Shown in pieces: positions 6,599-43,444 of a stretch of DNA of 64,000 nt. Source of the stretch: Chiloscyllium plagiosum (Eukaryota); the NCBI RefSeq assembly GCF_004010195.1, contig NC_057711.1, positions 140,749,601 through 140,813,600 of the forward strand, read 5' to 3'. Positions within the stretch are counted from its first letter, which is position 1; every line of letters starts with the position of its first letter. The notes below the pieces were generated by a model. It saw only the letters and a program-made list of their open reading frames with translations, did not search any database and was not told where the DNA came from. The translations under genes and the position numbers were made by a program.

Positions 6599-7295
6599 TG
6601 AGAGGATTTGTAGCTCAGGTTGAGGTTCTGGATGTAGGTTTGCTCACTGAGCTGGAAGATTCATGTTCAGATGTTTCGTCACCATACTAGGTAACATTTT
6701 CAGTGAGCCTCCAGCTGAGGTGACATGGCCCACTTTTTATTTGTGTGTTTAGGATTCCTTGGATTGGTGACATCATTTCCTATTCTTTATTTCAGGGGTG
6801 GTAAATGGGATCCAAGTCAACGTGTTTGTTGATAGAGTTCCAGTTGGAACGCCATGCTTCTAGAAATTGTCGTGCATGTCTCTGGTTGGCTTGTCCTAGG
6901 AATGGATGTGAGGATATCTGGGAAAATGCAAGAAGGATCCCGATTTGCAATAGGACCCATGCCTTGCAATTGTAAGTGGCTAGACAACACATCCTAGGAC
7001 AAGCCAAAGAGAGACACGCAGAGAATTCCTAGAAGCATGGCATTCCAACTGTAACTCTATCAACACACACATTGACTTGGATTCCATTTACCATCCCCTG
7101 AGAAAAAGATCAGGAAATTACATCACCACAAGCAATGATGTAGCCACAGGAAAGACATCACCAACCCAAGGAAACCTAAACATACATAAAAAATGGGCCA
7201 TGCCATCAGTGCTTCATCCGGAGGCTCACCGACGATGTTACCTAGTATGGTGACGAAATGTCTGAAAACCTTCCAGCTCAGCGAGCAAACCTACA
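6599..7295. mobile_element. Penelope-like fold-back insertion, family A
   Basis: Inverted arms at about 6630-6900 and 6976-7297 contain a GIY-YIG C-terminal remnant (ILGQANQRHARQFLEAW...SINKHVDLDPIY) and hammerhead-like cores. TSD tcaagttg(a/t)aaat at 6586-6598 and 7296-7308. Confidence 0.85.
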
Positions 7296-8789
7296 TCAAG
7301 TTGTAAATCTACAAACTGTCAATCTTCGTATGAAACTGCAACATAGCAAAGCTTAAAAATAAACAATATTCAAAAAAAACTACTACTTGAAGTAATTTTA
7401 AATTATCTCACATTTCCACAGATAATTCTCATTCTGTTAGATCGGTGGAATAAAGGATAGTGATAAAAAAAATTCAATAAAAACGCCACTCTTTGATACT
7501 GCAACTTCCAGAGATCAGGAGACCATCCGAAGTAGTATATTTTTGCAGATTAGCTGGTTTTGGAGTGGGGGGGGGGGGGGGGGGGGGGAAGGACTATTTC
7601 AATATGAAAGTTCCCAATCCTTAAAAATTAACTTACTCGATTCTTTAGATTATCCTTGTAAGCTCATCCTCTTACAAGGAGGAGTCAGATGGGAAGATGA
7701 TGAGTGGCAGGTAAGGAAATGGAGTACGAGAGCAGGCAGTGCAGACACAGTGAAGATCATTCTGGTCGAACCACATGCAGCAATTTTACAACAAAACCAA
7801 TCTGCTGATCATTACTGGTGTCAATCCACTTTAACTTCTCTCCCATAAAACTTATTACCTGCTTATAAATTCTCTTAAATTACACACACTAAATTCCCTC
7901 AATGAATTTTGTACAAAATATGATCCAGAAATCTTTCACAGAACAACAATGTCAACAGAACAGATGTGTAACATGCAGTTGATCCGATATTGCCTGTTTA
8001 GAATATTGCCCAAAGTCAAAAGGAAGTTATAATGAAAAGACATCAATGTGAAATGTTGACTGTTTATTTCTCTACAAGGGCTTCCAGTACTTTCTATTTT
8101 AATCCTGATTTCAATGTGTGCAACATTTTCCTCCTGGTTAGGCACAGGTATAGCTAATATTTGCATCTAGATTTTAGATACTTACCTCCAAGTTATACTG
8201 AAGCTAATATTAGTTAAATTGTAAAAAGAAGGTAAAATAAGGAATTCCCACCTTTGCTCTCAGGGAAAGGTCTTCTCCGCTATTGTACTTGAAGTATGCT
8301 CAGAGTTACCTCTGTACACCCTTAAAACATGAGTTGATCCTACTAGCAGTCAGTATATAAAAAAAATTCTAAATATGCAAGGCAGGAGGTGCAAACTGTC
8401 ATGCTCATTACCTCGCTAGTCTCACTACCTCACATGTTACTACAGGAAATAAAAACTTCAAATTACCAAGGTGACCAATTAAATATTTTACTGTTTAAAT
8501 TCTGATCAATCACAGATTTCTTAAACAACTACTGATTAATTACCAAAACAAAATTTATTAAATAAAGGTGCAATAATTAGTTAATGTTAAAAAGTGTCAG
8601 AAGTATAAATGCTGGTCTCTCTAAATATGCCCAAACCACACAAATCCAGGAAAATACAAAAATAATTCTCTACAGAGACTGACTTTCTGAAAAGGACGCA
8701 TTCTGACCTATTATTATTGAAGGCAAAAGGATAAAGCATAGATTTGTGCAGCAATCTGTTGTTTGGGACCTTCTGACTTTTGGTCAAGT

Positions 8790-9720
8790 CAGTAATCATG
8801 CACAATCATCTCTAAAATTCTATAGATAGGCAGGGTGCCCTCTTACTAACTTACTGTTCTTGGACAACATGAGGAGCGTTAAGGAATGTTGCCGTAACCC
8901 AATAGTTATTAATATTGTTAAACCATGGAGGGAAATACGGCAGAGTGAAAGCAATATTGCCAAAATGTCATTTCTTACAATCATAGTTGGTATACTGGGT
9001 TTTCAACTGGGGCTGATGGACTCAGGGTTTAAACTATGGCAGCTAGGGGTGTGTCTTACCTGGGTGACTTACTTGAGGGGGAGACATTGATGTTTTTTGA
9101 GCAGTTAGCTAAGAAATACAAGTTACCCAGTAAGAACCTCTTCTATTTTTTTTTCAAATTAGGGACTTCATTCAAAAAAACTACTGCACTTTTAACTGCT
9201 TCCTATAGATCCTATAGATCAGAGAAGAGGGTGCTTAGTGTTGGGAACACACTCTGTCGGCAATCACTATCACTTGTTGGGAGAGGGCCCCTCGGATGAG
9301 ACTCAGCGGCTTTGTAAGGTATGAGAGAGGGAGCTGGGCATTGAGATCTCCTCGGAGGCATGGAGGATATCTGGGAAAATGCAAGAAGGATCTCGATTTG
9401 CAATAGGACCCATCCTTGTAATTGTCCACTTGACTCTGAATTGTTTCTCTAAATTTAAAGTGGGAGTATCTCCAACATGTTCCAAATGCAAAATGAGTAC
9501 GGGTACTCTCACTCATTATCTTTGGTCCTGCCACATACTCTGGACATACTGGAGTGCTGTGGTAGGCGAAATAGAGGGGGTCTTGGGGACAGAGGTGGAG
9601 ATGGACTTGGTATCTCCTCTTCACACATATATTAAAAAATCAACATACATATTTTTATATATGTAGATCTAGGTTTTTTTTCTTTGTTCTGTTTTGCATT
9701 GTTTTGTTTTGTGTTTGTTT
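8790..9720 (+). mobile_element. L1-clade LINE 3' fragment (ORF2 C-terminus)
   Basis: WAARGVSYLGDL...FEQLAKKYKLP and the CCHC motif SPTCSKCKMSTGTLTHYLWSC; frameshifted. Confidence 0.8.
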
Positions 9721-10483
9721 AAAAATTCTACAGACAACTTGCTCAGAAAATGCCATCTTCATAGGTTATTTCGAAAGAACAAGTAGGTTGCATACTGAAC
9801 TCAACGAGAGGGTTTACTTTGCAGAACTGTAAGCCATCAGCTGGGAATCCTGCTTTTCTTCAAGTCAGCAGCTTCTTAGCAGACTGCCCTCCAACTGAAC
9901 CAGAGAAAACCAGGATCTCCTCAAGCCCATCACTGTTCAAAACAGCCTGGACAGGGACTTAAAGCAACACAAGCTATTATCAGCTGTCATGAGATTCACT
10001 GGACACATTATCAAAAACCTCTCAATGCCCAAGGTGAATTTTCAAAAAAAAACTTTCAAATAAGTCCAAACATTCCACAAAATGAAGTGAATCTACTTTC
10101 CACAGTGCTTCAAATCTTAAGTGCTCCAAGTAATATTAAATATCAAGCATCTTTGAAATAAATGTGATGTTCATAGTCACATTGTACACTGCCAGGGCAT
10201 TCTACTCAGAATCCTGTAACTGGACTTCCCAGCTTTTATCATTCCGGATCATCATCCAACTTACTTCAGCTCATCTGCTGTTGAAACTATCACCAGTGCC
10301 TTTGTCAGAACAGTCAATTCTCTGCCAGCTCCCATCTCTCACCTTTCATAAACTGGAGTTCCTTAAAAACCCTGCAGCACGAAGTCCCATTCACCATCAT
10401 TTGTATGTTCACTGTTCAGAAATGCTGCAATTTTAAAATTCTTATCCTTATTTTCAAATCCGTGCATGACCTCTGAAATAACT

Positions 10484-10693
10484 CCAGAGAGGCCAGTATC
10501 CTGTCATCAAGTCACCCTTTCTTTACAGGTGGAGAGTCCTCGATACTGATCCAGCTCTCAGAATGAACAGGAAATCTGACACTTCTATTTATATCTGATC
10601 CAATCAGGGAGTCCTGGCTTACAGATGAACAGGCCCCAATCAGGGAACTCATTCAGTGAGGTCCACATGGCTGACTTCATTACAATCACTGCA
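10484..10693 (-). mobile_element. Possible short solo LTR
   Basis: Begins TG(C)AGTGATTGTAATGA on the minus strand and contains CCAAT boxes and TATAAA; interrupts an older repeat. Confidence 0.4.
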
Positions 10694-11311
10694 GCCTCAT
10701 TTTAACTTTTCTCTGCAACCTCCTCTATTCCCACAACCCTCCAATCCTGGCATCGTGCATATTTTTGATTTTAAAACCACTCCACCACTGGCAGCTTTGC
10801 CTTCACCTGCCCAGGTCCTAAGCTTCCCAAATTACTTCACTTCTCCTCCTCCAAAAGGCATTTTAAAATCTACCTCTTTGATCAGGATTTTTGGTCGCTT
10901 GTCATTATAACTCATGTAGTACCATGTCAAATTTTATCAGTGTCAATTTGCATCCCATAACTGCCAACTGTTCAACTTGGCAATTTAGACACCAAGACAA
11001 AAATGTCTACTAAACAATCACGTCCTCAAGTTGCTGTTTGATGACACTGCCGATAGCCCATACTGAAACTCATTTGCAGCAATTAATTGATCATTTCCCT
11101 GGGCCTGCAATGTCAGGAAGGTCAAAGATATGAACCAGGTATAAAGACCTTGCATCAACATCGCAACTTCACTCCAGAGATTGTTGACAGATAGCGTCAC
11201 CAACAGTATCAAAGCTGTCATATCAAAGTTCAGAAGTCAAGCGTGGATCAGCAGACCAAAAATATAACACTCCATTTTTATCAGGTTGGTATTCTGAAAG
11301 CGTTCCTTCAC

Positions 11312-11635
11312 AGTAGCCTAGTGGTGTTATCGCTAGGTTATTAATCCAAAGACCTTGTTCGTATTCTGGGGACTTGTATTCAAATGCTACCATGGCAGAT
11401 GGTGCAATGTGAATTCAGTACTACTCTAGAAATAAGAGTATGACCATGTCATCATTGCCAATTGTCAGGGAAAAACCCATCTCGTTCACTAATGTCATCC
11501 TCACCTGGTCTGGTTTACATGGGACTCCAGACCCACAGCAATATGGTTGACTCAACTGCCCTCTGGGCAATTAGGGATGAACAGTAAATGCGGGCCTATC
11601 CAGTGATGCCCATATACGTGAATGAACTTTAAAAA
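11312..11635 (+). mobile_element. tRNA-headed SINE (second family) sharing its tail with the CR1/L2-group LINE
   Basis: A/B-box-like head and central acctggtctgg...gactccagacccacagcaat...tgccctctg. Other copies at 16250-16580 (-), 16065-16180 and 36440-36810. Confidence 0.7.
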
Positions 11636-13040: not shown

Positions 13041-13376
13041 ATGGTTGAATTCAATAAAACAAAAAAATCAGGGTACTAAGAGTCAGTCAATTGTCACAAA
13101 ATTCCAATTGTTTCACTAATGCCCTTTAAGGAAGCAAATATGTCATCCCTACCTGGTCTGGCCTACTTATGACTCCAGATTGACTTTTAAGTGCCCTCTG
13201 AAATAGCATTCACACCACTCAGTTTCATTAAAAGGAATGAAATTGGATGGACCACGTGGCATTAACCGATATACCAGAAACAGCTAACTCAGCCCTGACA
13301 ACCCTGTAAAGTACTCCTTACTTATATATGAAGCTCGTGCCAAAAGTGAGAGAGCTTTCTTAGTCAGGTAACAGCC

Positions 13377-13575
13377 AGTTTTGAGAAGATTTGTAGCTCA
13401 GGTTGAGTTTCTGGATTTAAGTTGGCTCACTGAGCTCGAAGGTCTGTTTTCAGACATTGCGTCACCATACTAGGTAGCATCATCAGTGAGCCTCCGGTTG
13501 CTCACTGATGTTACCGAGTATGGTGACAAAACATCTTAAACCAAACCTTGCAGCTCAGCAAGCAAACTTACACCC
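13377..13575. mobile_element. Short Penelope-like fold-back insertion, family A
   Basis: Same terminal sequence as the 6599 element; inverted arms centred near 13495; TSD agtca(gg/aa)taacagcc at 13362-13376 and 13576-13590. Confidence 0.8.
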
Positions 13576-14199
13576 AGTCAAATAACAGCCTGACCACCAT
13601 ATTCATGGACCCATACCTTATAATGGCCCAGATACTTGGCACGTCCGACCCAGTGGAGATTGTATCATAGTGTTATGCAGTCGGAAAGGTTGCTCTGGAA
13701 GACCTCAACTCTGACTCAAAACCCAAGAAATCGCATGTGATCATGTCAAACATGGGCAAGGAAACCTCCTGCTGATTACCATGTAACACCTCCCCCAGTT
13801 TATGAATCAGTGCTCCTCCATAGTGAGCTCCACTTGCAGTATGTACTGGGGGTGGCAAGGCTGCAAAATGTACTCGGGGTGAGAAATTTCAATGTCCTTC
13901 AATAAAAGTGGCTAGGTCACACCACTATTTAGTGAGCTGGCCAAGTCGTTCAGGAAGTAGCTCCTCCACCAGCTCTGTGGCTGATTGTGCAGCAAGGAGG
14001 GAGGGAAAAGCATCTGCCCTTGACAATAGGAGTACGAATGACCACTGCACAGTCACTGTGGAGTCAAAGTCCCATCTTCACAATGAGGATAACATCCATG
14101 CAAAATAGAACAGACTTCAAACAGATCTAGCAACTCAAAAGTGGTCATCCACAAGGCATTGTGACCATCGACAGCAGGAGAATTGTATTCAACAATTAG

Positions 14200-14517: not shown

Positions 14518-15640
14518 ATAATCTGTAATCTCATAGGCCTAATCTATCCCACATTCTACCATGAAAAACATGGCAGAGATCAACCATAGTTCATGCCAGT
14601 AGCAGCACCAGAGTCACCTGAAAATGATGCCCTAATGTCGTGAATCTACAAAATAGGTCTACCTGTGTGTCAAACAAAGCAAGCAGCAAGAAAATTGACA
14701 GGGCTAAATGATCCCACAACCAAAGGATCACATCTAAGCTCTGCAATCTGCCACATCGGTCAAAAACAACTGTGGACAGTTAAACAAAAGAGAGAACGAG
14801 CCTCCACAAATATCCCTGTCTTTAGTGATGAAATCAAGACAATGCAGAAGCTCCTGACATCCAAAGCAACATGACGTTAAGCCTTCAACCAATTTGATTC
14901 ACTCCATGTGACATCGAAAAATGGCTGATAGGTCCTGACAATATTCCAGCAATAGTAGTGAAGACCTATATCCTAGAAATGGCTGTGTTCCTAGCTAAGC
15001 TGTTTCAGTATTGCTGATATCTATGTGGCAATGTGGAAAAAGCAGCTCAAATCCAACCTGGCCAATTGCTACCTATCAATCAACACTTAAATCAATACCA
15101 AAGTGATGGATGGGTTTGACAACAGTGCTTTCAAGTGTCCCTTGCTGAGGATGTGCAGGTTTCTCATTGGTGCTCAGTTTGGATTTCAAAAGGGTCACTC
15201 AGCTCCTCACCTCATATCAGCTTTCGTCCCGACATGGCGAACTGAGGTGATCTGATCTCCAGAAGTAAGGCAAGAGAGTGTCTGACCTTGACATCCAGCA
15301 GCATTTGACTAAACATGACATAAAGGAACTATAGCAAAACTAGGTTCAATGGGAATCAGCCGAAAAAATTGCTGCTGATCAGAGACATTCCTACTACAAA
15401 GATGGGTATAGTTCTTTGAGGTCAGTCAGCTCAGCCACAAAACATCAAAGCAGCTTTGTCCTTGGTATCCCTATATCACACTGTTGCAATTCAAGAAGGC
15501 AACGCCTCCCCAGGTTTTCCAGGGCATTTAGGGGTGAGCAATATATCCCAGTCCAGCCAGCATCCGAAGAACTAGCAGTGATTTCTAAAAAGAAAATTAC
15601 ACTCAAAACCTCAGACTATAATTGGACCTGTGTACAGCAT

Positions 15641-15819
15641 GAGCTGAAAATGTGTTGCTGGAAAAGCGCAGCAGGTCAGGCAGCATCCAGGGAACAGGAG
15701 AATCGACTTTTCGGGCATCACGTCGATTCTCCTGTTCCCTGGATGCTGCCTGACCTGCTGCGCTTTTCCAGCAACACATTTTCAGCTCTGATCTCCAGCA
15801 TCTGCAGACCTCACTTTCT
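15641..15819. mobile_element. Penelope-like pLTR-derived perfect hairpin, family B
   Basis: 67-bp perfect inverted repeat (15641-15707 / 15722-15788), 14-nt loop, 31-nt unpaired tail; TSD cctgtgtacagcat at 15627-15640 and 15820-15833. Confidence 0.9.
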
Positions 15820-16896
15820 CCTGTGTACAGCATACTGTACCTCCCTCACTGTACAGGTAAAAGTCACTACATTTCAATTACAATTGCTGGAAATAAAGGC
15901 ACACTAACTTGTTTAGGGCATTGGGAAGACAAATTAATTGTCAGTACTAACCTTCAAAATAGGAAAATCTGCAATGAACATACCTGACATATTCTCTTTG
16001 AAGAAGCATTTTAAAATCTAACTTGGGAAAGAAAAAAAACAAATCCAATTTCGACTCTGTGTCCATACCTGCCATCTTTACCTGGTCTTGCCCATATGTG
16101 ACTCACATCCACAGCTACTGCCCTCAGAGCAGTTAGAGATGAACAAATACCTACACAGCCCACATCCCATCAAAAAAAAAGTTTATACCCAGCTCGCAAT
16201 ATCCAGTATCCCACATTTCTTATAGTAGCTGATGACTCTTGTTTTTATATCCATTAATGGGATGACAACATCACTGGCTAGGCAGCATTTATTGCCCATC
16301 CTTAATTACCCAGAGGGCAGTTAAGAGTCAACCACTTTGCTGTGGGTCTGAAGTCACATGTAGTACAGACCAGGTAAGGATGGCAGTTTCCTTCCCTAAC
16401 AAACATTAGTGAATCAGATGGGCTTTTCTGACAATTGATTTTGGTTTCATGGTCATTGTGAGACTTTTAATTCCAATTTTTTACCGAATTCAGATTCCAC
16501 CATCTGCTATGGCAGGATTTGAACCTGGGTCCCCAGAACATTGCTTGGGTGTCTGGAATACCACTATGCCATCACCTCCCTAAAGGATAGCAAACCAAAT
16601 AACCACACCATTATAGCTCTTAACACATGGACAGATTTCTAAGAAATCCATATCTCAGCAGGTTTTCAAGAATACAGTGATGGATTTTTGTTGTATGTTA
16701 CACTGGAGAATACTAATGTTCTATTCAATTGAAACAACAATACTTTACCAGACTTCATTACCTTAAGAGGGGAAGAGGATCAAGAGGCAAGATTGATGAG
16801 ACTAGGTCACTTCTCCATCTCCTTTTAGAACTGAACTCTGACAGCAATTTAACGAACCTTTTAAGATCCATGTGGAGGAAAACTATCTTAACAAGG

Positions 16897-18172
16897 CATA
16901 GGAGCAAAATACTGCAGTTGCTGGAAACTGAATCAGGAAACATCAGCTTGCTCTCTCTACATGAATGTTGTCCGGCCAAAGCCACTGACTCCCAAAGCTA
17001 TCTTCACTACAGCTTGTCACACCCCATGTCCTGCAAGGTCTCCATCCCATTCTCCCAGTTCCTTCACCTACTTCACATCTGTTCAGATGAAACCACCTTC
17101 CAAAACAATGCTGCTGACATGGCTTCCTTCTTCCATGACTGTGGTTTCCCACCCACTGTAGTTGACAGGACCACAACCGAATCTGACCTATCACCTGTGT
17201 TTCTGCACTTGCGCCTTCCCATCATTTATAACAGCGTGATCAGGTTCCCTTTATCCTTACTTTTCATCCCTCCAGCCTCCGCACTGAAAGGATCGTTCTC
17301 TGCCATTTCAGACAACTCCAGTAGAACGCCACCAACAAAACATCTTCCCCTCACTCCCCATCTGCATTTCGCAGGGATCATTCTCTCCGGGACATCCTAG
17401 TCCATTTTACAACCAACATCTCTCCACGGCATCTTCCCATGTAACTGCAGAAGATGCAACACCTATCCCTTCACCTCCTCCCTGCTCACCATCCAAGGGC
17501 CTAAACAGTCTTTCCAGGTGAAGGAGCATTTCACCTGGACCTCCTCCAATCTTGTGTATTGTATTCGCTGCATCCATTGTGGCCTACTCTAAACTAGAGA
17601 AACCAAATGCAGACTGGATGGCCGTTTTGCAGAACACCTCTGGTCTGTGCGCAAGCACCACTCCGATCTTCCTGCAGCCGGTCATTTTAACACAGCTTCC
17701 TGCTCACATGTCTATCTTCAGGATGTTGCAGTGTTCCAGTGAATCATAGCGCAAACTGGAGGAACATCTCATCTTCAAACTAGGCACTTTACAACCTTCT
17801 AGACTTAATATTGAGTTCAATACCTTTAAATTGTAAACCAACTTCTATTTCTTCCCTTTCTTCCATCCTGTTATCATGTCCTCCCCTCCCAGCATTCCAC
17901 TTTGTCCTTTCAATTCTGGCAGGTAACACACCATTGTTCTGCCATTCTCACATTCTGATCACTTAATCTGAACTATCAACATCTTTTCTCCATCAACACC
18001 CTACACCCATTATCCCACCCCCAACCCCCACTGCAAACAATAGCATAAATTCTGTCCCTTCACCTTTTACTTCAGCTCTGATGAACAGTCATCTAGACTC
18101 GAAACGTTAGCTTGCTCTCTCTCCATGGATGTTGTCTGACCCGCTGTGATCACCAGCATTTGTTGCTTTCAA
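16897..18172 (+). mobile_element. 5'-truncated Penelope-like element (RT C-terminus, GIY-YIG, pLTR with hammerhead core)
   Basis: TDSQSYLHYSLSHPMSCKVSIPFSQF, SSNLVYCIRCIHCG and FAEHL motifs; CTGATGA...GAAACGTT at 18078-18108; TSD tatcttaacaagg at 16884-16896 and 18173-18185. Confidence 0.85.
18074..18112 (+). ncRNA. Minimal type I hammerhead ribozyme motif (PLE-associated)
   Basis: AGCU-CUGAUGA-A-CAGUC aucua GACUC-GAAAC GUU-AGCU: stem I AGCU/AGCU, stem II with one mismatch, palindromic ACGU stem III. Confidence 0.7.
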
Positions 18173-18389: not shown

Positions 18390-18863
18390 TTACTGGTGCT
18401 TCTGCTCTAAGGTTGCTGTCTGGTGAAATGGATTCTGCAGCATATCTACATGGGGGCTAGTAAGGAGGGACTTGAAAGATGGAAGTGGACTAATCATCTT
18501 ATCATGATGTCTTTCTGAAGCAGTGGAGACAGTTGTATATATAGGCGGGATCATAGCATTATGATTATCAGGAGCAGTGCAGACCACATGTGGCATGCTA
18601 GACACTGCACCAGGGATTGTTATGGCATTTCCAAAAGAGGATATTGTAGAATCAGTTGATCCACGCAACCGAGTATCAGTCCTGTCCACGAAGTTACCGC
18701 TTCCCTTGACCGTGCAATCACTCTCCATCTCTCGAGGTAGAAAGTCTTTGAGAAGCTTCGGAGAGGCATGCTCCTTGTCGATCTGCACTCGGATTTCCTC
18801 TTTGTGAACTGTTCGAATGTGTTTCTTGAGGTTACTTGGATGACGGCAACGCTTTCCACAGAC
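18390..18863 (-). CDS. ZBTB gene last coding exon
   Basis: cactag|GTC TGT GGA AAG translates VCGKRCRHPSNLKKHIRTVH, completing the finger begun by YQCR (phase 0). Frame stays open for 157 codons to TAA at 18392-18390. Confidence 0.9.
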   Translation of the reverse strand, partial: VCGKRCRHPSNLKKHIRTVHKEEIRVQIDKEHASPKLLKDFLPREMESDCTVKGSGNFVDRTDTRLRGSTDSTISSFGNAITIPGAVSSMPHVVCTAPDNHNAMIPPIYTTVSTASERHHDKMISPLPSFKSLLTSPHVDMLQNPFHQTATLEQKHQ

Positions 18864-26155: not shown

Positions 26156-28035
26156 TAGACTGATGAGGGCTTCAATCAGTTTCACTAAGTTAAAAGGTTA
26201 CATTTTAATACGACAGGAACAACAGATGTACAAACACAATCAGGCGCTGCACTATCAGCAAGATAGCATCAGACTTGGTGAAATTTAAATTTTAACGCAG
26301 AGTAAACTGTAGCAATATAGCAATTGCAACATGTAATGACATATTATTCCGTACAAAGCTGGGAGGTATCTGCATCTCAGTAAAATTGGTTTTTACACTT
26401 CACGGTGGCAAGACCGCATACCTGAAAATTGTGGTCCTATTTGCTGAGTGTCCTCTCAATTTATTGGCTTGTGGAATAACATTGTATGATAAAAAATAGC
26501 ATATCATAATGAAAATCATAAAACTTGATCTTGCTGAAGCTTCACAAAGGCACTTTTCAACAGAGGTTAATAGGTCAGCAGTTAGCAGCAGGAACCCTGA
26601 TCTCATTTTCCCCAGTTCCAATTCGGGGCAATTGTCTGAACCCTTGCAGTAGCCAGTGGTACAATTTGCACCTGAACTGGAAGATTTGAACTCCACCCCA
26701 GAGACTCTACTACAAAAATCTAGGCTGACACTCTGATTCAAGACTGAGGGAGTGCTGCCTTTCAACAAGATGTTAAAATCAACTAGATAAAAACAATGAG
26801 TGTAGATGCTGGAAACCAGATTCTGGAGTAGAGCGATGCTGGAAAAGCACAGCAGTTCAGGCAGCATCCGAGGAGCAGGACTGGCCCATCTTCTCAGATG
26901 GAGGTAGAAGATCAGTGCTTTGGCCAATATTTATCCCCCAATACGTATTAATGCCAAGTAAAACAGATGATCACACTACTGTGGATTCTTTTACTGGCTG
27001 TTGTGCTTCCTATGAATAACATTGTATGCCAACCTTGTTTAATGCTGCAGCTAAAGCTCGATATACTGGCAGATGTTCATATAACTTGTGTAAATGTCAC
27101 AATCTGTAATCACTATGCCTCATGATTTTATGTAGACATTAAACCTACTGCTGTTCTATTGAGAGAGTGTGGTCTTCTGTAACCAAATATAAATACTGTG
27201 GACACAAGAGGAGGAAAAGAAACTTCAGAATTAGCAGCCACATTTCAGAATACTCAGCTTCATAACTCCTCCAAAAACTCAACAGTCTGATGTAGCAAAC
27301 GCTATATGAGCTAGGCAGGCCAGACTCAGATGGCCCCAGGCATATCCACAAATTTTGGGTAAGTTGGACCAAAAACAATGAGATATTTCACTTCTTGAAA
27401 AATGGGTTCAGACCGAACTTTTCAGAAAGTCCAAATCAAATGCTACAGACCATAAGCATAGGAGCAGAAATTTGGCTGTTCAGTCCATTGAGTCTGCTCT
27501 GCCATTCAATCATGGCTGGTAAGTTTCTCAACCTCATTCTCCTGCTATAAGACCATAAGACATAGCAGCAGAAATTAAACGTAGGTACACAAACTCTAGA
27601 CAGGTTAGAATGAGCATAGGCCTACAGTACAAAAGCATGGCAATTCAGCTGCAATTGGCTTGGCAATTTCTCTCAGAGAGGATATACACCAATAGTTATG
27701 CAAAATAAAACTTTGCTTATTAGGCAGCTGGAGATGGGGCTCATGATGCAGTTGGATTAGTTTAATCCGATCCAGGTATGTGCTACCTGATAATGGTATA
27801 TGGTACACATAATCTCAGTTTGTTAGAAAACAAAGTGAGTAAACATCACTTTAACACAATACCAACCACCTGATCATAGGGACATAAACCCTACCTGCAA
27901 TTAACCATTACAATTACCATTTGTGAAAAATCATCACCTTTATACAAAGCCCTCCCGCAATTAACCCATACACAAAACCCATTTGTAAAAAACTTGCTTT
28001 CACGCAAATCCAACCTGCAATAAACCATCGCCTTT

Positions 28036-30234
28036 GTACAAACCCAAAGTGCCTGGGTACACCGAAATGACTGAGCTTCCAGTTGCCTGCCATTTCAACA
28101 CACCGCGGTGTTCCAATGCTAACATTTCTGGCAAGGCCTGCTGTGCTGTTCCAGCAAGCCTCAGTGCAGGGTCAAAAAACAACATCATTTTCCACCTGAG
28201 TAACCTGCAGCCTCTAGGACTCAATATTGAGATCAAAGTTTAGGGAGCCTGATTCCACCCTTCCGTACTTTTAATCCAACTCACACCCAGTACTATTGCA
28301 ACATGGGTTGCTTTTAGCACGATTTGGAGATGTCGGTGTTGGACTGGGGTGTACAAAGTTAAAAATCACACAACACTAGGTTATAGTCCAACAGGTTTAT
28401 TTGGAAGCACTAGCTTTCGGAACGCTGCTCCTTGATCAAGTGGTTGTGGAGTATAAGACTGTAAGACACAGAATTTATAGCAAAAGTTTACAGCGTGATG
28501 TAACTGAAATTATATGTTGACAAAAGACTTGGATTGTTTAAGTCTCTCATCTGTTAGAATGACCATGTTGGTTTTAGTTCTTTTATATGTAAATTGCAAA
28601 ACATTTTTAAAAGTTACATTCTCGAGTGATAAAGTATTGAAGGTGCGACTGCCCTGTGTTAGACTGTCTATGCCACAATGGTCAGACTAATTCTAATCTT
28701 AAAAGCGGATTTATAGAATCTTACATGGATTCATGCAGTTTTTGAGAAAATAAAATGTAATTCTGCAAGTACAAATTCACCCCATAAACTTATAAGTGTA
28801 TGTGCGCATGTGTGCGCGCACGCACGTGTTGGGGGGAGTTATGAGTGTCTGTGATAGAGTGTATGTATGTGTGCGAGTGTGAGTGTAAAGAGGTATAAGT
28901 CTGTGAGAGGGTGTGTGTGAGAGCGTGTGTGAGCATATGAGAGAGGGTCTGCGTGAGTGTGTGTCTGTCTGTGTGTATAATGCAATGGGGTCACCTTTAG
29001 TGTGACATGAACCCAAGGTCCCGGCTGAGACCCTCCCTATGGGTACCGAACGTAGCTATCAGCCTCGGCTCGGCCACTTTTCGCTGTTGCCTGTTCCAAA
29101 GTCTGCCTCGTAGGACGGTCACCCGAAGATCCGAGGTCGAATGTCGTGGACGGCTGAATTGTTCTCCGACTGGGAGGGAATAGTCCTGTCTGTTGATTGT
29201 TGTGCGGTGCCCATTCATCCGTTGCTGTAGTCTCTGCTTGATGTCACCAATGTACCATGCCTCAGGGCATCCTTGCCTGCAGCATATGAAATAGACAACG
29301 TTGGCTGAGTCGAATGAGTACCTGTCACGTACGTGGTGGGAGGTGTCCCCACACGTAATGGTGGTATCCACGTCGACATTCTGACACGGCTTGCAGCATC
29401 TACCTTGACAAGGTTGTATGGTATTGTCCTGAAAGCCGGGCAGTTCACTACGAGCAATCTGTTTGATGTTTGGTAGTTGTCCACACACATGCACACATAC
29501 AAGTTTCTGGGGTGAATTTGTACTTGCAGAATTACATCTTATTTTGCTCAAAAATGCATGAATCCATGTAGGATTCTGTAAATCCGTTTTTAAGATTAGA
29601 ATCAGTCTGACCATTGTGGCACAGACAGTCTCACACAGGACACCTCGACCTTCGATGCATTATCTGGGCCGACATGACACCAATTGTTATAGTTCACTTG
29701 ACTATGTAACTTGTAAAAAAAAGTTTTGCAATTTACATATGAAAGAACTGAAACCAACATGGTCATTCTAAAAGATGAGAGACTTGACAAACAATCCAGG
29801 TCCTTTTCAATATATAATTTCAGTTACATCACGCTGTAAACTTTTGTTATAAATTCTGTGTCTTACAACCTTGTACTCCACAACCACCTGAAGGAGCAGC
29901 GCTCTGAAAGCTAGTGCTTCCAAATAAACCTGTTGGACTATAACCTGGTGTTGCATGATTTTTAACTTTGCTTTTAGCACAGTCACCCATTCCTATGTAA
30001 TCCTAGGCCCATGATCAATTATGAGTTCCATTCAACAAGGCCAACCCCATTTTCTCATTCTTAGCTCTTACTATCATTTACTCAGCTTCTGTTCATAAAT
30101 ACCAGCTTTTCCTAGCTACTAATAGTTCTGATGAAGTCATTGGACTTGAAAAAAAATTAACTCTACTTCCCCCTCCCGCCTCCCCCACAAATACTGCCAG
30201 ACTTGGTGAGTTTCGCCAGCAATTTCTATTTTGG
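28036..30234 (+). mobile_element. Older Penelope-like element (outer member of a nested pair)
   Basis: ELPVACHFNTP...IIFHLSNLQPLGLNIE remnant; degenerate CTGATGA core at about 30128; 21-bp TSD ctgcaataaaccat(c/t)gccttt at 28015-28035 and 30235-30255. Confidence 0.75.
28321..29967 (-). mobile_element. Penelope-like element, family C: GIY-YIG remnant between ~450-bp inverted pLTRs
   Basis: SANVVYFICCRQGCPEAWYIGDIKQRLQQRMNGHR...GLSRDLGFMSH; inverted arms at about 28354-28810 and 29482-29970; GT-rich tract; TSD ttgcttttagcac at 28308-28320 and 29968-29980. Confidence 0.9.
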
Positions 30235-30285
30235 CTGCAATAAACCATTGCCTTTACATAGTTGTTGATCCTGAGCAATACTTAC

Positions 30286-33244: not shown

Positions 33245-34165
33245 TATCGATCTAGATGAATGAACTGAAGGCATTCTGGCGAAGTTTGGAGACCATGTAA
33301 AGACAGGTAGAAGGACAGGTAGCGTTGAGAAGGCAGGGAGGCTGCTGAAGGATTTGGACAGTTAGGAGAGTGGGCAAAGTAATGCAGATGGAGTACCACA
33401 TTGGAAAGTGTGAGTTCATGCACTTTGGTAGCAAGAATAGAGGCATGGACTATTTTCTAAATAGGGAGAAAATTCAGAAGTCTGAAGAGCAAAGAGACTT
33501 GGGAGATCTAGTCCAGGATTCTCTCAAGGTAACCTTGCGGGTTGAATCAGTAGTTAGGAAGGCAAATGCAATGATGGTATTTATTTTGAGAGGACTGGAA
33601 TATGAAAGCAGGAATGTATTTCTGAGGCTCGATAAGGCTCTGGTCAGACCAGGTTTGGAGTATTGTGTGCAGTTTTCGGCCTCATGTCTGAGGAAGAATA
33701 TATTGGCCCTAGGGCGCATTCAGAGGAGACTCCTGAGAATGGTCCCAGAAATGAAAAGCTTAACATGTAAGGAATGTTTGAGGACTCTGGGTTTATACTC
33801 GGCAAAATTTAGAAGGATAAGGGGGGAATTGAATTGAAATATACAAAATACTGAATGGGCTCGACAGAGAAGATGTTTCCATTGGTAGGAGAGACTAGGA
33901 CTCGAGGGCCTAGCCTTAGAGTAAAGGGAAGACCTTTTAGAAACAGAGATAAGGAGAAACTTCTTCAGCCACAGAAGGCTGTGGAGGCCAGGTCATTAAG
34001 TATATTTAAGATTAGATAGATGTATTCTTGAATATGAAAGGAATCAAAGGTTATGGGGAGAAAGCAGAAGAATGGGGTTGAGAAATTTATCAGCCATGAT
34101 TGAATGGCAGAGCAGACTCGATGGCTGTTTGACCTAATTTCTGTTCCTCTGTCTTATGGTTTTAT
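33245..34165 (+). mobile_element. CR1 LINE fragment inside older minus-strand CR1 pieces (about 31940-34600)
   Basis: KCEFMHFGSKN...ALVRPGLEYCVQF. Confidence 0.85.
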
Positions 34166-34600
34166 AGTATCCCACTAATAACACCAGACAGTGATTTGTT
34201 TATTCCTACTTTGTTTTTGTTCTATTGACTAATCTTCCATCCACGCCAGTAATTATCCCAATTTTTTGTTTATATAGCACCTGTGATCAGCATTCTTGGA
34301 AGCTTTCTCAAAATCCAAGTATGCCACATCCCATCAGTTTCCCCTTATCTACTGTTAAAAACATCCTCAAGAAACTCTAACATGTCTATCAAACATTACT
34401 GCTCCTTTATAAAACTATACTGACCCTGCAAAGTACTTCAGATGTGATCTAACAAGACCTTTATAAGCTTTAACATGACTTCTACACTCACCCATTTTGT
34501 CTGAGTCCTCTTAAAATCCATCACTTAATTGCCTTTCTACTTACATGGATGCCCAAATCTCTTTGGAGCTCCACTGTTTCTAACATGTCACCATTTAGAA

Positions 34601-34766
34601 AGTCAAGAGTGTGGTGCTGAATCGACGTTTCAGACATAAGCTCTTCATCAGGCTTATGCCCAAAACGTTGACTCTCCTGCTCCTCGGATGCTGCCTGACC
34701 CGCTGTGCTTTTCCAGCACCACACTCTCGACTCTGATCTCCAGCATCTGCAGTCCTCACTTTCTCC
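34601..34766. mobile_element. Short Penelope-like fold-back insertion, family B variant
   Basis: Inverted hammerhead-core halves meet near 34650; TSD caccatttagaa at 34589-34600 and 34767-34778. Confidence 0.8.
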
Positions 34767-35054
34767 CACCATTTAGAAGGTACCTAATTCTATTCTTTTA
34801 AACTCCATTTGCTACAGTTTTGCATATTCACTTAATCTATCAATTTTGTTTTGTAAATCCATTAGATTTTAGAATCCTACTGAAGGCATGAGTTAAGACC
34901 TTAAGTCCTGAATTGCGCACACAATCTAATAAAATCTTTCTGAAATCTATGACATTTTATCAAACTCTGCTCAGTCTTTTTTACCATTGACGTTAACAAA
35001 AAGGAAATGAGGCACAGTGAATGACGAACCAACCCAATCACCCTGTAGCACAGC

Positions 35055-35554: not shown

Positions 35555-36889
35555 CTTTTCATCTGTCCATGGATAGCATCTTCAGATGCTCATCCAATAG
35601 TCAAGTCAGAAGATGGAACAGATATTGATGTGGTTTTCAAAGGCAGGGTCCTAGCTGGATGATGGCACAGAGATGAAAGTAAATAATCTCTTTGATGGAA
35701 AGAATATGGTGTTAGAAGCTTAGCTGGAGCTACAACAGGACATTGAGATTTCAAACAGTCTGATTCAGCTTGAGATAGTGGCCAGGGCTGTCGGTGTTGG
35801 CTTTGGTATTTCCACCACTTAGCTGGAGGTTACTGCAGCTTTTCCAAGAATCAGGTCAGGTAAGCAGTTGAGAACACAGACAGTGAAGTGATTGAGAGAA
35901 GTAGTGGTGAAATAGAATTTGATGTTATCAACATACATATGGAATCGTACAATCTAATGTTACGATGAGATAGGATATAGATATGGATAAGGATAAGGAG
36001 ATGTAAACCCAGGATGACAGTGCAGGTAAGGGAACAGAAGCCATTGCTGGAGAACCTCTGTTAAACAAGTGAAAGACAACCTAATCAAGTTGAACAATAA
36101 AAGAAAGCTATTGGAGAATTATGAAGCTAACTGTGTAAAAACCACAAAGAAACTATGAGGCAATGTAAAGTAGTACTTTTACATGGATCTCATCCATAAC
36201 TTTGTTTAGGGCCATTTTAGTGCTGCAAGGTGGATGCAAACCTAACTGGAAGGATTGAAACTGGAAGTTGTAGGAGAAACACATTGCTGTACTTGTGTGT
36301 TTGTATGTGCATGCACATAACCCTGGGCCAATATTACATTCTTCTTTTCTATAAGCAACACAGGGTTGACTAAGGACAGCACCAAAATCCAGAATTAAAC
36401 AGGAAAATGAGGGTACACTAAAATAACTAAAGGCATCACCACAATAATGGTACTGATTATGTTATTGAACCAACATTCAGAGAACATGAGTTCAGATCCC
36501 ATCGTAGCCATCAGTCGGAGAAGCTAAATTTTGTTACTTGTTTCAAAAATCTGAAACTGTAAAAGTGACACAGAACATGTCATACTGTTATGAAAATCCA
36601 AATATTTCACTGATATCCTTTTGGGAAGGAAACCTGGCATCCTCAGCTAGGTTGTTCTGCATGCGACTCCAGCCCCACGCCAATATCATAGATAATTAAG
36701 AATCATTTAAAACGTTATTCAGTTAGAACAAACTGTTTCAAGGTAATGGTCCACCATCATTCTGGCAAAAAATACCAGTACTAACCACATTCTAGCATGT
36801 ATTAAAAAAATACTAACTGGCTGCACAACAAAATTCTCCTTACTTGATGAACTGAGATAACCCAGAGTTCTGTAGAAGCAGTAACTCAC

Positions 36890-37986
36890 CTGTAACTGAA
36901 CAATTTCTCACACATGTCACACCTGAACAACTCCTCACCAGCAGAAACCTGATGGGAGCGGTAGAGTGTATATGGCAGCAGCTTCTTACAACCTTCACAT
37001 CTCAGTTGTTTCCTTTCCAGAATGTCATCGCCATCTCCTGAAAGGTTCTTGGTTATTAATATAGAATCCTTCTGTGGTTTCCCCTTTGATCGTTTTGGCC
37101 TCCCACAATGTGTCAGTAGTGAAGATTCCATATTCAAAGATGGCAAAACACTGGTGCTATTTTTGACACTATCATGTATACCATTCTTTGAGTCTCTCTC
37201 CCCCACAGCAATATTTAGTATTTCAGGTCCAGCCGCTCTCTGGGATCCACTTAAGCTCACTTTTGTCCACTGACATGGAACCTTACAATTTTCCGATTTG
37301 GCAATAATATCTTGATTCCCTTCTCTCCCATTCACACGAGTTAGGCTGGTCTTTAGACATCTGGGTTTTCTGCTAGAAACAATTGTTCTAGCTAATCTGG
37401 CAGTCTGCAATCGAGTTTTGATTTCAGCCAAGCATGATCTGTGAACCTTTTTGTTAACAATTGATTCATTGTTCAATTCAGTTTTGCAAGATGGACTTGC
37501 CGCCCACACAGAATTATCTTCCTTCACTCTCTTAAGGAGTTCTAGGTCTTCCACTTCTTGGTTTCTTACAAGAACATTCCTTAATTTACAGATCTCTTTG
37601 TCTGATATTTGGCCATTACCATTAATTCCACTATTCTCCACGTGAAGCTTTACTGGTACACAAACATTCAAACTCTGAGCAGCTGAAAGGAAGTCATTCA
37701 TGTGACAACCTGGGACCTTAGAAGTATAAAAATATTCTAACAAATGGCTAAAACCCTCCAGGCTCACTGTATCTAGCACAACTGTGCATTCCTGGTTATT
37801 CTTGCTCAGGGTTGTATAGAAATAGCTGCTGCATGCAGACAAGATGTTTTTATGAGCATGAAAAGTCTTTCCCTCCACAACAACTGCAATATCACAAAAT
37901 AAACCTATAGCTCGCTGTTCGTAAAGTTTCTGAAGAATTGCTTGACAGTGATTGTAACATTCCTTAATATAGGAAGGACTCTCCAT
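36890..37986 (-). CDS. BTB/POZ-zinc finger (ZBTB-family) gene, first coding exon (BTB domain, linker, start of C2H2 array)
   Basis: ORF begins MESPSYIKECYNHCQAILQKLYEQRAIGLFCDIAVVVEGKTFHAHKNILSACSSYF, a classic ZBTB BTB motif. Strong Kozak context (GAAAATGG). Ends CEGC...FRCDMCEKLFSY-AG|gtgagt, a phase-2 donor at 36889. Confidence 0.93.
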
Positions 37987-38759
37987 TTTCCCAAAAGATT
38001 TGGTGGATTTGAACTTGTATTAAGACTCAAAAGGAGAAAGCAATAGCAGACCAAGTCAAACACCACAAATGCTTAAGAAGTGCAAAGGCTGTAATAATCC
38101 ATGATCCAAATGTTTCCAGTTCTTCTGAAAAGCTGCTTGTTCTCAATGTGTTTACTGTAAAAACAACCATTAAATTATAAGTAGTTTTTACATTAAATTG
38201 TGCATCCAACTCCAACAACCACTTGCATTTATATAGCACCATTAACAATGAAAACAATGGTTATATTATTAAATAAATTTTAAAACTGATCACATTATGC
38301 AAAAAGTTTGGTCAAAAATATAACTTATAAAGGAGCATCTTAACAGGAAAGAGGAGAAACAAGGGAACAAGATTTAATAAGAGAATTGCAGATCTTCAGA
38401 CAATGGAAGCTGAACAGCCAGTCACCAATCAAGCAATTCAGAGTTGTGCAATGCCACAGAGTGAAAAATAGATAGCCCACATGACGATACGGATATGCTG
38501 TCAGGACTGGTTTCAAGAACACATCAAGGGAAGAGGAGAAGAACCAGACGTTATTATGCAGAAATGGGAAGAAGAATAATTCTCACTGGTCATTCAATTA
38601 AGATTCATGAAATAGTCCCTACAATCAAACCTGGTGTCATTTAATTTCCAAATCAAAAAGGCAATGCCTTTTTACAAGTTTTAGGCTTAAATGATTCCTC
38701 TTCCTCTTGCGCAATGTATTATAACTAATCTACAGTCACTCACCTCTAGGATTCATTAG

Positions 38760-39460: not shown

Positions 39461-42400
39461 GTTCCTCACTTTTTGATGGCTGGACTCTGTGAGGTCTCAG
39501 TGTAGGCTGCGGGTTCACTGATGGCCTGTGAGCCTCAGCTTAGCCTTGCAGGCTGTCCCTCAGTGAGGACAACGTAAGGCCATAAGACATAGGAGTGGAA
39601 GAAAGGCCATTTGGCCCATCGAGTCCACTCCGCCATTCAATCATGGCTGATGGGCATTTCAACGCCACTTTACCCTCACTCCCTCTGTATCCCTTAATTC
39701 CTTGCGAGGTTAAGAATTTATCAATCTTTGCCTTGAGGACATTTAACGTCCCGGCCTCCACTGCGCTCCGTGGCAATGAATTCTACAGGACCACCACACT
39801 CTGGCTGAAGAAATGTCTCCTCATTTTCATTCTAAGTTGACCTCCTGTAATGACTTGATAATATCAGTTATCAATTGGCAGTGATTTGAGCAGCTGTTGG
39901 TGCTCTGTGACTGCTCTTGTTTGGAAGAGCTCACCTCTGATGATGTCTTACCATTTTACTCCTGATTCTGCACCTGTTTCCATGCATTGATGTCAGTAGA
40001 GCAGACCTGGAGGTTTCAAGACTGTCTTTGAAACATTTCCTTTCAACCTGTGAAATACAGTTTTGTGTGCGGCCATTTGTGAGATGGTGTTATGATCTGT
40101 GGAAAACAGCAGAAGCAAAGGCCACAGTGATTTTGACAGCTACTGGCAGGGATTATGGTGAGCAGTGCTGCATGGTGCAATCTTTTTGTTATGGGATATA
40201 TTTATAGAGTCATAGAGATGTACAGCACAGAAACAGATCATTTGGTCCAACCCGAGCTGACCAGATATCCCAACTCAATCTAGTCCCACTGCCAGCACCC
40301 GGCCCATATCCCTCCAAACCCTTCCTGTTCATCTTTTTGAACATGATTTGGAGAGTCACAGTTTCTTATTCTTGGTGAGATAGCTTTGTCTCCAACACAG
40401 AGTCATAGATATATATAGCATGGAAAGAGACTCTTTGGTCCACCTCGTCCATGCCAATCAAATATCCTAAATTAATCTTATTCCATTTGCCAGCACTTTG
40501 CCCATGTCCCTCTAAACCCTTCCTATTCATATATCTATCCAGATGCCTCTTAAATGTAATTATACCAACCTCTTCCACTTCCTCTGGCAGCTCATTCCAT
40601 ACACATTCATCCTCTGCATGAAAATGTTGTCCCTTAAGTCCCTTTTAAATTTGTCCCCTCTCACCCTAAACGTATGCTCTCTAGTTCCGGACTCCCCCAC
40701 CCCAATAGACCTTGTCTATTTACTCTATCCATGCCCCTTATGATTTTATAAACCTTTATAAGGTCACCCCTCAGCCTTTGATGCTCCAGGGAAAACAGCC
40801 CCAGTCTATTTAGCCACTCCCTATAGCTCAAACCCTCCAACCCTAGTAAACTTTCTGCTGGGGTGTGGACTCCAAACCTTCCAAATGCTTCTCTCCTCTG
40901 CCCTCATGTTTGAGCTGTGGCCTTCCTCCTTATCGTTACCAATCCAAAATCTGAGAGGCATGACCCCGTCCTTGTCAGCAGCTGCTTTCTTTTGGGCTCG
41001 GGAGGCCTCCCAGTTCTGTTTCACAGCCTTGTTTTCTCTTTGCCCTGTGATACTAGAAGGGTAACAACTCTCTCAACACGAGCACTTACATCCGATTCTC
41101 TTAGCAGCTTCCACTGATCCAACGGTAGCTGCATATCAATAAGTAAAGCCCCACCCATACTACCCAACACCTCAAGGGGCCCACCTAATTCCTCAGTGAC
41201 CAGGACTGTCTCTCCAGTGTGCATTCACCTGGTTTGTACGGAGACAGCTGGTGTAGCTTTTGCACATCCATCAAAATCAGAATGTGTCCATCAACAAGTT
41301 CAGATCAGGCAGAATTTTGGGACCACCCTGTCCTTTTCTTGATGATTCACTGGAAATGGCATTGGAAAATCAGTTTGTTGATCAGTTGGTATTTTCACCT
41401 TCTGCGCAACTCCATTCCTCCAGAGGGCTTTTAATATCATTAATAAATCCTAGATCAGAATCCCAGGATCTGTATGTTGTATGCTGATCTTGAGGTTTTT
41501 GTACATTATAATAATTTGGAGTTAAACATTTATCTGGTCTCTAATGTTAAATTGTATCGATCTATGTGGCCCAAACAAATAAAACGTTTAATACCCTGGT
41601 ATTAAAGATAAACTACTCACCCTGCACTGTGTTACCTCATTTAAATATTAGCAACAACTTGCATTTATAAAATGGCTGTTTGGTAGTATGCAATTTGAAT
41701 ATTGCAAAAAAGATCTGAAGCTTTTCATTTTTCAGGATAAATGTAAGAATGCCAAATTTCGAATATTCACAACAATTTATATCACAGAGAAAGGGTTCTG
41801 ATTAACAGATGAAAAACATTTCAAGATGGCACCTCACAGAAGCATTATCGAACTAAAATACACACCAAGCCCAAGATGAGATGATCAAAGGCTTTGTCAA
41901 AGAGGTGGGTGTAAAGCAGCACCTTGAAGACAGAGAGGGAGGCAGAGGGCATCAGGGAGGAAATTTCAGAGTATAGGGCCTAGATGGCTGAAGGCACGTA
42001 CTGGTGAGAGAGTGAAGGGGAGAGTTGTGAACTAAACACCAGAGTCAGAAAAGTAAGTGGTTTTGGAGATGGAGTACCATTATAGGAGTGAAGTAGGTTA
42101 GAAGAACAAGACATAGAACGGATTTACACAAAACAATGAGAATCTTAAATTCGATCCATTTGGAGAATAGGATTAAATGTAGGTCCATGAGTACAGAAGT
42201 AAAAGATTAGCGGTGGTGTAGATATTAGGATATTGGCAGCAGAGATTAGGGCAATGAGATTTATGGAAGAACAAACAAAACAGTTTGGTATTGGTCAAGT
42301 ATGCAGGTAACAAATGGATGGATGAAGAGTTTGATGGCATGTAGGCAATGTTAACTGAGAAAGAAATTGATGTTGTTTGTGATGAAAAGAATGAGGATTC

Positions 42401-42799
42401 AAGCTTATTTAAGATTCAAATACTAGGCAAAAGATGTGAATAGGTCTATTCCACCTGAGACAGTGTGAGTGGAGGAAGGATGGAATTAGTAGTGAACAAT
42501 TCATGGCAGGGACTAAAAACAATGGCTTTGGCCTACTGATATTTAAGGAGAAAGTGAGGACTGCAGATGCTGGAGATCAGAGCTGAAAATGTGTTGCTGG
42601 AAAAGCGCAGCAGGTCAGGCAGCATCCAAGGAACAGGAGAATCAACGTTTCGGGCATAAGCCCTTCTTCAGGAATGAGGAAAGTGTGTCCAGCAGGCTAA
42701 GATAAAAGGTAGGGAGGAGGGACTTGGGGGAGGAACGTTGGAATTGCAATAGGTGAAGGGAGGTCAAGGTGAGGGTGATAGGCCGGAGTGGGGTGGGGG

Positions 42800-42845
42800 N
42801 NNNNNNNNNNNNNNNNNNNNNNNNNNNNNNNNNNNNNNNNNNNNN
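42800..42845. other. Assembly gap (46 N) at the centre of a long inverted repeat
   Basis: Run of N. Confidence 1.
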
Positions 42846-42991
42846 AATCTTCTTCCTGACCTCTCCGCCCCCACCCCACTCCGGCCTATCACCCTCACCT
42901 TGACCTCCCTCCACCTATCGCAATTCCAACGCCCCTCCCCCAAGTCCCTCCTCCCTACCTTTTATCTTAGCCTGCTGGACACACTTTCCTC

Positions 42992-43028
42992 ATTCCTGAA
43001 GAAGGGCTTATGCCCGAAACGTTGATTC
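42992..43028 (+). ncRNA. Minimal hammerhead ribozyme motif (mirror copy on the minus strand at about 42640-42675)
   Basis: AUUC-CUGAAGA-A-GGGC uuau GCCC-GAAAC GUU-GAUU. Confidence 0.7.
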
Positions 43029-43444
43029 TCCTGTTCCTTGGATGCTGCCTGACCTGCTGCGCTTTTCCAGCAACACATTTTCAGCTTCTGATATTTAAAC
43101 ATGGAAGTTACAGCTATTGTAGGAATTGATACGAGATAGGCAATCTGACATAAAGATATGGGGGGAGGCGGAACAACAGAGAGAGGTGGTCATGAGGAAG
43201 AGTTAGGTGTTATCAGTATACATGTGGAAGTGGAGCAATATTTGTGATATACAACCAGGCAGGTGAGTTCAAGGAGAGAGTCAAGGACAGATATTGGGGC
43301 ACTCCATGGTTAATGCCACAAAGTTGGGAAGAGAAAACATGTCTGGAACTGTTCTGACTACAACTGGATAGATAAGAGTAAAAGCAAACAAAGGCATTGC
43401 CTCTGACCTGGACAATGAAAGGGATAATTTTTAAAGTACAGATT

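Follow-up and report, generated by a model that had tools for sequence, protein, structure and literature searches.

Head-to-head insertions of Penelope-like elements in Chiloscyllium plagiosum: paired arms with a single tail and a probable origin by offset priming of both target strands

For the endonuclease-bearing (EN+) Penelope-like elements (PLEs), the insertion unit has been described as a pseudo-long terminal repeat (pLTR) with an adjacent inverted, 5'-truncated copy and a one-sided tail of 30-40 bp (PMC3846280, PMC8557442, PMC2377424). In PMC3846280, the typical structure of Penelope is described as an inverted pLTR with a 31-bp tail and a target-site duplication (TSD), and an origin by self-priming, with an antisense template, was proposed; in PMC8557442, the same layout is given and the origin of the inverted repeats is called open. 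For PAc, a Poseidon element from Anolis, it was shown in vitro that both target strands are cut and extended, that the two points at which reverse transcription begins lie internally, about 110 nt from the start of the transcript, and bound the tail, and that hammerhead cleavage is dispensable (PMC11167929). The elements treated here and their layout of inverted pLTR, one-sided tail and hammerhead motif are already published. This paper will focus on a stretch of 64,000 nucleotides from Chiloscyllium plagiosum (assembly GCF_004010195.1, contig NC_057711.1, positions 140,749,601 to 140,813,600 of the forward strand), called the window, which contains six insertions of this kind. Like the described EN+ unit, they and their genomic relatives have head-to-head pLTRs, a one-sided tail, a short TSD and, in long copies, a reverse transcriptase (RT) with a C-terminal GIY-YIG endonuclease. 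Unlike it, most pairs found here are minis of at most 260 bp devoid of an open reading frame (ORF) (119 of 155), at about 109 pairs per Mb. The two arms of a pair almost always end at different sites, only one of them carrying the tail, and each insertion was probably built anew, by priming of both target strands at two offset sites of the RNA and joining of the two cDNAs.

Six blocks were surveyed, namely the window extended by 200 kb in both directions and five stretches of 200 kb from other contigs, together 1.42 Mb without N. Loci were classified with seven subfamily references; a single reference per family miscalls diverged subfamilies as solo arms. This gave 377 loci, consisting of 155 inverted pairs and 222 single arms. 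In each family the 3' ends were bimodal, either tailed (T) or tail-less (S). Among the pairs, 142 were T+S (19 with a shorter S arm), seven combined an intermediate end with S, six were S+S and none was T+T; outside the window, T+S accounted for 136 of 149 pairs. TSDs of 9-20 bp, with a mode of 14-15, were identified in 121 of the 155 pairs, in none of the six S+S pairs and in 33 of the 222 single arms, compared to 2 of 500 trials with mismatched flanks. A looser, genome-wide search for a two-tail pattern returned 11 loci, none with a TSD passing the threshold; nine of these could be traced to gaps, to assembly folds or to sequence reading on into the body of the element, and two are unexplained. 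The tail offset had a median of 35-40 nt and a range of 25-48, so that the earlier figure of about 30 nt has to be replaced. The original prediction also held that the inverted arrangement is the dominant outcome of integration. This applies to the TSD-bearing loci, 121 of 154 of which are pairs, and to the youngest subfamily B1 (66 of 118), but not to all loci taken together (155 of 377). Single arms may hide decayed or distant partners; for B1 single arms without a TSD, a wider search gave a TSD to only 2 of 34.

The content of the arms was compared in the 111 TSD-bearing pairs that do not adjoin a gap, the other 44 being left out. The S arm had the longer 5' reach in 66 of these and the T arm in 32, and the two were level in 13. 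Since each arm of the 66 pairs holds sequence private to it, neither arm is a copy of the other. Among 20 family C loci with an ORF, eight had a TSD-bounded inverted pair, with the ORF on the tailed arm in four and on the tail-less arm in four; for the remaining 12, no TSD-bounded inverted partner was present in the stretch examined. At the outer ends, microhomology of at least 1 nt with the target was found in 29 of 39 and 24 of 33 cases, against 35% and 27% in shuffles. The two arms of one insertion had common subfamily alleles in 34 of 34, 30 of 31 and 31 of 31 cases at three sites, which is consistent with one RNA or sibling RNAs as the source.

Self-priming, by which a single cDNA (or, according to PMC3846280, an antisense template) copies itself into the second arm, is the interpretation published there for the palindromes at inverted PLE junctions. 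It would agree with the common alleles and with the 32 of 111 pairs whose tail-less arm lies wholly within the span of the tailed one. However, self-copying cannot account for the asymmetry of reach or for the ORF in either arm, and the private sequence in the 66 pairs and in four of the eight ORF-bearing pairs speaks against it, largely refuting it for the former. In addition, a non-templated G precedes four of six tail-less arms ending at -4 (counted from the hammerhead core), pointing to a sense, capped template. Self-priming is therefore regarded as improbable, and "fold-back", the name used in the original prediction, is a misnomer for the mechanism.

The prediction that the two target strands are primed at offset positions of the RNA is supported by the one-tail rule and by the independent templating of each arm. 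In the proposed sequence of events, the enzyme would nick the two target strands in a staggered manner, about 14 bp apart, and the 3' end of each nick would prime a cDNA, one at the T site and the other at the S site, about 35-40 nt apart on the RNA. A head-to-head T+S pair lies within one TSD likely because both strands are nicked at this distance and each primes its own cDNA. Both cDNAs would run toward the RNA 5' end and be joined by microhomology of zero to a few nucleotides or by filler, and repair would leave the TSD. Priming at sites near the 5' end of the transcript would reach the cap after 90-130 nt and result in minis of about 170-230 bp with a cap-derived G, and priming at the downstream pLTR copy would result in long forms with coding sequence possible in either arm. 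Because the hammerhead is located between the RNA start and the priming sites, it would be a passenger in the minis. PLE integration might even be intrinsically two-ended, with a protein dimer, working on one RNA rather than two, that primes both strands of the target and always uses different sites of a capped sense transcript; the balance tips only slightly in favour of this wider view.

Similarities exist to the twin priming of L1 (PMC11702581), in which both target ends are RNA-primed, the TSD is kept, internal junctions show microhomology and an extra G is found at complete 5' ends. For L1, the second primer is placed at variable internal sites and the pieces barely overlap (PMC11702581), whereas here a fixed distance of 35-40 nt separates the two sites, and the arms, which coincide over nearly their whole length, form an inverted repeat. 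The main text of the PAc study does not link its two start sites to the two arms of inverted copies, and its text supplements contain nothing on tail, inversion or initiation; Figures S1-S2 lie outside these and may bear on novelty (PMC11167929). In the literature searched, which excluded most subscription papers, no statement of the one-tail rule, of the 5' edge with an extra G or of cap-terminated minis was found.

For the window, all six predicted head-to-head insertions were recovered, with a one-sided tail and TSDs of 11-15 bp. They derive from three unrelated terminal sequences, none of which aligned to another over more than 13 nt (A at 6599 and 13377; B at 15641, 34601 and 42547; C at 28321). 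The features are as follows.

6599..7295: family A (probably Poseidon-type) head-to-head insertion; tailed arm 6599-~6930 (-), tail-less arm 6992-7295 (+); endonuclease C-terminal remnants in both arms, both hammerhead cores mutated.
6586-6598 and 7296-7308: TSD of this insertion, 13 bp, 1 mismatch.
13377..13575: family A mini; tailed arm 13377-13495 (-), tail-less arm 13500-13575 (+); 5' limit of both arms 5-9 nt 5' of the hammerhead core.
13362-13376 and 13576-13590: TSD of this mini, 15 bp, 2 mismatches.
15641..15819: family B1 (probably Neptune-type) mini; tail-less arm 15641-15718 (-), tailed arm 15720-15819 (+).
15627-15640 and 15820-15833: TSD of this mini, 14 bp, exact.
28321..29967: family C (probably Neptune-type) insertion; long tailed arm 28321-~29480 (-), containing the 3' untranslated region and an endonuclease remnant; tail-less arm 29484-29967 (+).
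28308-28320 and 29968-29980: TSD of this insertion, 13 bp, exact.
28997..29500 (-): GIY-YIG endonuclease remnant with a CX4CxxC-type linker upstream; best genomic relatives in frames with RT.
34601..34766: family B mini; tail-less arm 34601-34652 (-), internally deleted; tailed arm 34651-34766 (+).
34589-34600 and 34767-34778: TSD of this mini, 12 bp, exact.
34628..34651 (-): intact minimal hammerhead core motif in the tail-less arm of 34601-34766.
42547..43087: family B1 insertion; tailed arm 42547-42799 (-), assembly gap 42800-42845, tail-less arm to 43087 (+).
42536-42546 and 43088-43098: TSD of this insertion, 11 bp, exact.
42648..42671 (-): intact minimal hammerhead core motif in the tailed arm of 42547-43087.
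42996..43019 (+): intact minimal hammerhead core motif in the tail-less arm of 42547-43087, with an initiator-like TCATTCC before the core.

Because 46 N separate the arms of 42547-43087, the length of this element and its junction are not fixed by the assembly. The GIY-YIG remnant of 28321-29967 had been set against small copies without coding sequence; a second coding remnant, the endonuclease C-terminus in both arms of 6599-7295, had been omitted. Six of the 15 window loci of these families are inverted pairs and nine further pieces are not paired. The latter are single arms of family B, at 5333-5413, 6260-6306, 18077-18146, 26783-26878, 30185-30232, 55515-55612, 60066-60182, 62196-62259 and 62718-62892.

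The inversions could in principle be chimeras of an assembly that has gaps, one of them between the arms of 42547-43087, that contains two folded loci with identical flank on both sides (L200, L205), and that perhaps mis-filled the interior of a twin of the 15641 copy. This explanation has next to no probability in view of the TSD frequency in pairs and controls given above, of the old pairs, the arms of which are only 72-83% complementary, and of the locus at 15641, the one of the six insertions for which an empty site was sought. Here, contigs of a related species (organism C; two runs from two studies) pass from 15626 directly to 15820 and leave one TSD copy, which is the clean empty site that had been named as a check. 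In addition, same-species contigs from another run extend from either flank into the 15641 element, oriented as in the assembly, the junction being spanned by no listed contig. L200 and L205 themselves are assembly fold artefacts, hairpins with mirrored flanks and no TSD.

In all three lineages, the 5' ends of the arms cluster just 5' of the hammerhead core. For B1, the peak falls 4 nt 5' of the core, on the A (-4 A) within TCATTCC, a sequence called initiator-like by comparison to the initiator consensus. When the longer reach in each of 55 B1 pairs is considered, 35 end at -8..+2 of the core and two at -9..-58. At 6,431 loci genome-wide, the B1 -4 A is preceded by a non-templated base. Among the first 100 of these, read by eye, the base was G in 57, A in 26 and T in 17; at a control position, likewise with C as the templated base, G was read by eye in 17 of 100 (Fisher p 6e-9). 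The exact form with G is present at 5,546 loci. About 30 nt 5' of the edge, TATAAA occurs in A1 and C, and TTATCT in B1, B2 and B4. TTATCT, which reads as a GATA site on the other strand, is conserved amid diverged surroundings in these three subfamilies (for example at window ~42963-42968 (+)) and perhaps stands in for a TATA box. For Drosophila virilis, an internal, TATA-less promoter was described (PMC2377424), so that the upstream motifs found here are not confirmed by that work.

In L1 insertions, an extra G marks the copied 5' ends of capped mRNA (PMC11702581), and by analogy the G before the -4 A would be expected for a capped RNA end. The minis would then come from near the RNA 5' end and not from the 3' end. 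As an alternative, two-strand priming could be correct and the 5' edge nevertheless reflect a splice site, ribozyme cleavage or stalling of the polymerase when it meets the hammerhead. In three unrelated lineages, no more than a few nucleotides separate the edge from hammerhead stem I, and an intron of D. virilis has its end on the 5' side of helix I (PMC4209133). However, the predicted cleavage site (+27/+28) holds 4 of 110 B1 arm ends, compared to 47 of 110 at -8..+2; no AG acceptor precedes the edge, where the upstream letters are heterogeneous; a stall leaves the G excess without a reason; and TATAAA or TTATCT is found about 30 nt upstream of the edge. Each of these explanations is considered unlikely, and the edge is better read as an RNA start.

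At four loci (L197, L201, L203 and L052, the last at G000:C1:~50117000), a piece of the element body following the tail is joined head-to-tail to a copy starting at the putative RNA 5' end; the join in L201 carries an extra G. Such joins may have arisen when the reverse transcriptase, at the cap, switched to an internal template site, and partial tandems may originate in this way.

It had been suggested that the smallest copies are non-autonomous hairpins similar to miniature inverted-repeat transposable elements (MITEs), and the uniqueness of the junctions had been named as the check. Among directly joined junctions of the sample, 83 of 88 were distinct, as expected if the hairpin forms at each insertion, and the junction of the 15641 copy is present at only two loci genome-wide. 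A uniform unit with the same interior at many loci, as in MITEs, was not found, and the minis would instead be dead-end by-products made at each insertion. Like MITEs and retrozymes, they are short, non-coding and of high copy number (10.64898/2026.07.22.740005, PMC7229834); unlike these, they have no conserved unit or junction, asymmetric ends and a variable TSD of 9-20 bp.

A hairpin master that is transcribed and re-inserted as a unit would account for three observations. One junction, found three times in the sample, is present at 952 loci genome-wide, and a shorter pattern matches 1,099 loci with a right-hand tail and 172 with a left-hand one, a side bias of 6:1. The 15641 copy has a twin at a distance of 192 kb (L023:~3590-3750; G000:C2:140573230), identical over 162 bp (15641-15802), a stretch that contains the junction and a private change, and two C1 copies 27 kb apart have a common junction and one private change. 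However, the frequent junction depends on a 2-nt microhomology, and 20 copies that were read differ in their TSDs, represent three or more subfamily haplotypes, have tail-less ends varying from 54 to 100 and carry the tail on the right in 18 and on the left in two, which fits independent recurrence rather than amplification. Together with the diversity of the other junctions and the confinement of the 15641 junction to two loci, this makes a MITE-like origin highly improbable. The 15641 twin, which has a different TSD and a shorter tail-less arm, may be a product of local re-copying, gene conversion or assembly mis-fill.

Several points weigh against the formation of each insertion by offset, two-strand priming on a capped RNA. 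Single arms make up 222 of the 377 loci, and for 189 of these no TSD was detected. If hairpin centres lost sequence unevenly once inserted, the count of 66 in 111 pairs could be too high, microhomology at the outer ends is also a product of end joining, and alleles common to both arms could stem from gene conversion or from the activity of one subfamily at a time. The RNA start is deduced from DNA, the G test covers subfamily B1 only, and the other arm could supply some of the G's via microhomology. The side bias of the recurrent junction is unexplained. In bulk, the in vitro PLE study reported no difference in start site between the strands (PMC11167929), which does not bear out the one-tail rule.

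The identification of the insertions as PLEs, already proposed in the original prediction, was corroborated; judged from their sequence, they are EN+ PLEs of one Poseidon-type and two Neptune-type lineages. The pLTRs occur in direct or inverted arrangement with a tail at one end, and the tail is the start of the element body, L197, L201 and L203 running on past it with common sequence. The remnant at 28997-29500 has at least 150 genomic relatives (150 scored among 46,108 candidates). Through the family C relatives, an RT followed by a C-terminal GIY-YIG domain is found in one ORF: an RVT_1 match was obtained for three of five frames scanned from longer relatives, one of them above the Pfam cut-off, and the nearest Atlas cluster is GIY-YIG/HTH_animal/RVT_1 (0.97). 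By itself, the window remnant gave no Pfam match, and the best matches in PDB searches had only E>0.3. YIGE/YIGQ motifs were seen by eye in families A and B. A CX2-5CxxC linker, the mark of the Neptune/Nematis clade (PMC8557442), is present 5' of GIY-YIG in families B and C. In family A it was not seen in the sole copy reaching that region, which is itself broken. The C-terminus of family A resembles, as we assume, that of Poseidon, and families B and C are taken to be Neptune, a label that does not separate Neptune from Nematis. Further PLE-like coding remnants, RT thumb-like and endonuclease-like by eye, lie at 16717-17400 (+) and 62304-62939 (+) of the window, with no Pfam match in the frames scanned.

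The minimal hammerhead of PLE pLTRs has been described as CUGANGA-stem II-GAAA, lacking helix III and having a palindromic loop 3 (PMC4209133). The core motif is present in all seven subfamily references, and the motif or its remnants are found in the arms. The term "ribozyme-bearing" was nevertheless too strong: 47 of the 111 pairs are without an intact core, only 3 of the 12 window arms have kept one, and in 15641-15819 CUGANGA is wholly absent, with no core left. In comparison to the hammerheads of PMC4209133, the cores in these pairs are mostly truncated or mutated. Two intact cores occur in 17 of the 111 pairs, on opposite strands, and therefore cannot form a dimer from one transcript; dual motifs on opposite strands, 100-700 bp apart, had been noted before (PMC4209133). 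An Rfam scan of the window gave no hammerhead model at E<=1, only sub-threshold miRNA-type matches to the hairpins. Single-sequence folds of the three hammerhead regions showed stem II at most, with z values from -0.6 to -2.5, the value of -2.5 being driven by the hairpin junction. Tandem non-LTR retrozymes with type I hammerheads have also been linked to PLEs (10.64898/2026.07.22.740005). No such arrangement, with head-to-tail repeats that all contain a complete hammerhead of type I, was found among the pairs, which are head-to-head.

Two host exons on the minus strand of the window code for a BTB/POZ domain (36886-38019 (-)) and C2H2 zinc fingers (18390-18863 (-)), and probably belong to one ZBTB-type gene. 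Since the insertions at 28321 and 34601 lie between these exons, they are probably intronic. Remnants of LINE-like open frames (CR1/L2- and Tx1-type, by eye) are located at 33349-33837, 48773-49381, 54249-54977, 58267-58893 and 44221-44772, and the inverted matches that link them over long distances stem from dispersed copies of repeats.

Provided that the six sampled blocks are representative, the density of about 109 pairs per Mb corresponds to roughly 4 x 10^5 genome-wide. Such pairs are prone to mis-annotation as MITEs or miRNA hairpins, break short-read assemblies and are a plausible source of intronic double-stranded RNA. For the PLE family, the paper of 2013 favours antisense self-priming (PMC3846280), and both this paper and that of 2021 leave the origin of the inverted repeats open. 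With the one-tail rule, the independent arms and the cap-like G, a model of two-strand priming on a sense template can be put to a direct test in the in vitro system that already exists. If integration is indeed two-ended, the minis would settle the questions of sense versus antisense template and of self-priming for the PLE inverted repeats, and hundreds of thousands of them would be fossil run-off cDNAs of the "strong-stop" kind, which map the start of transcription at the level of single bases.

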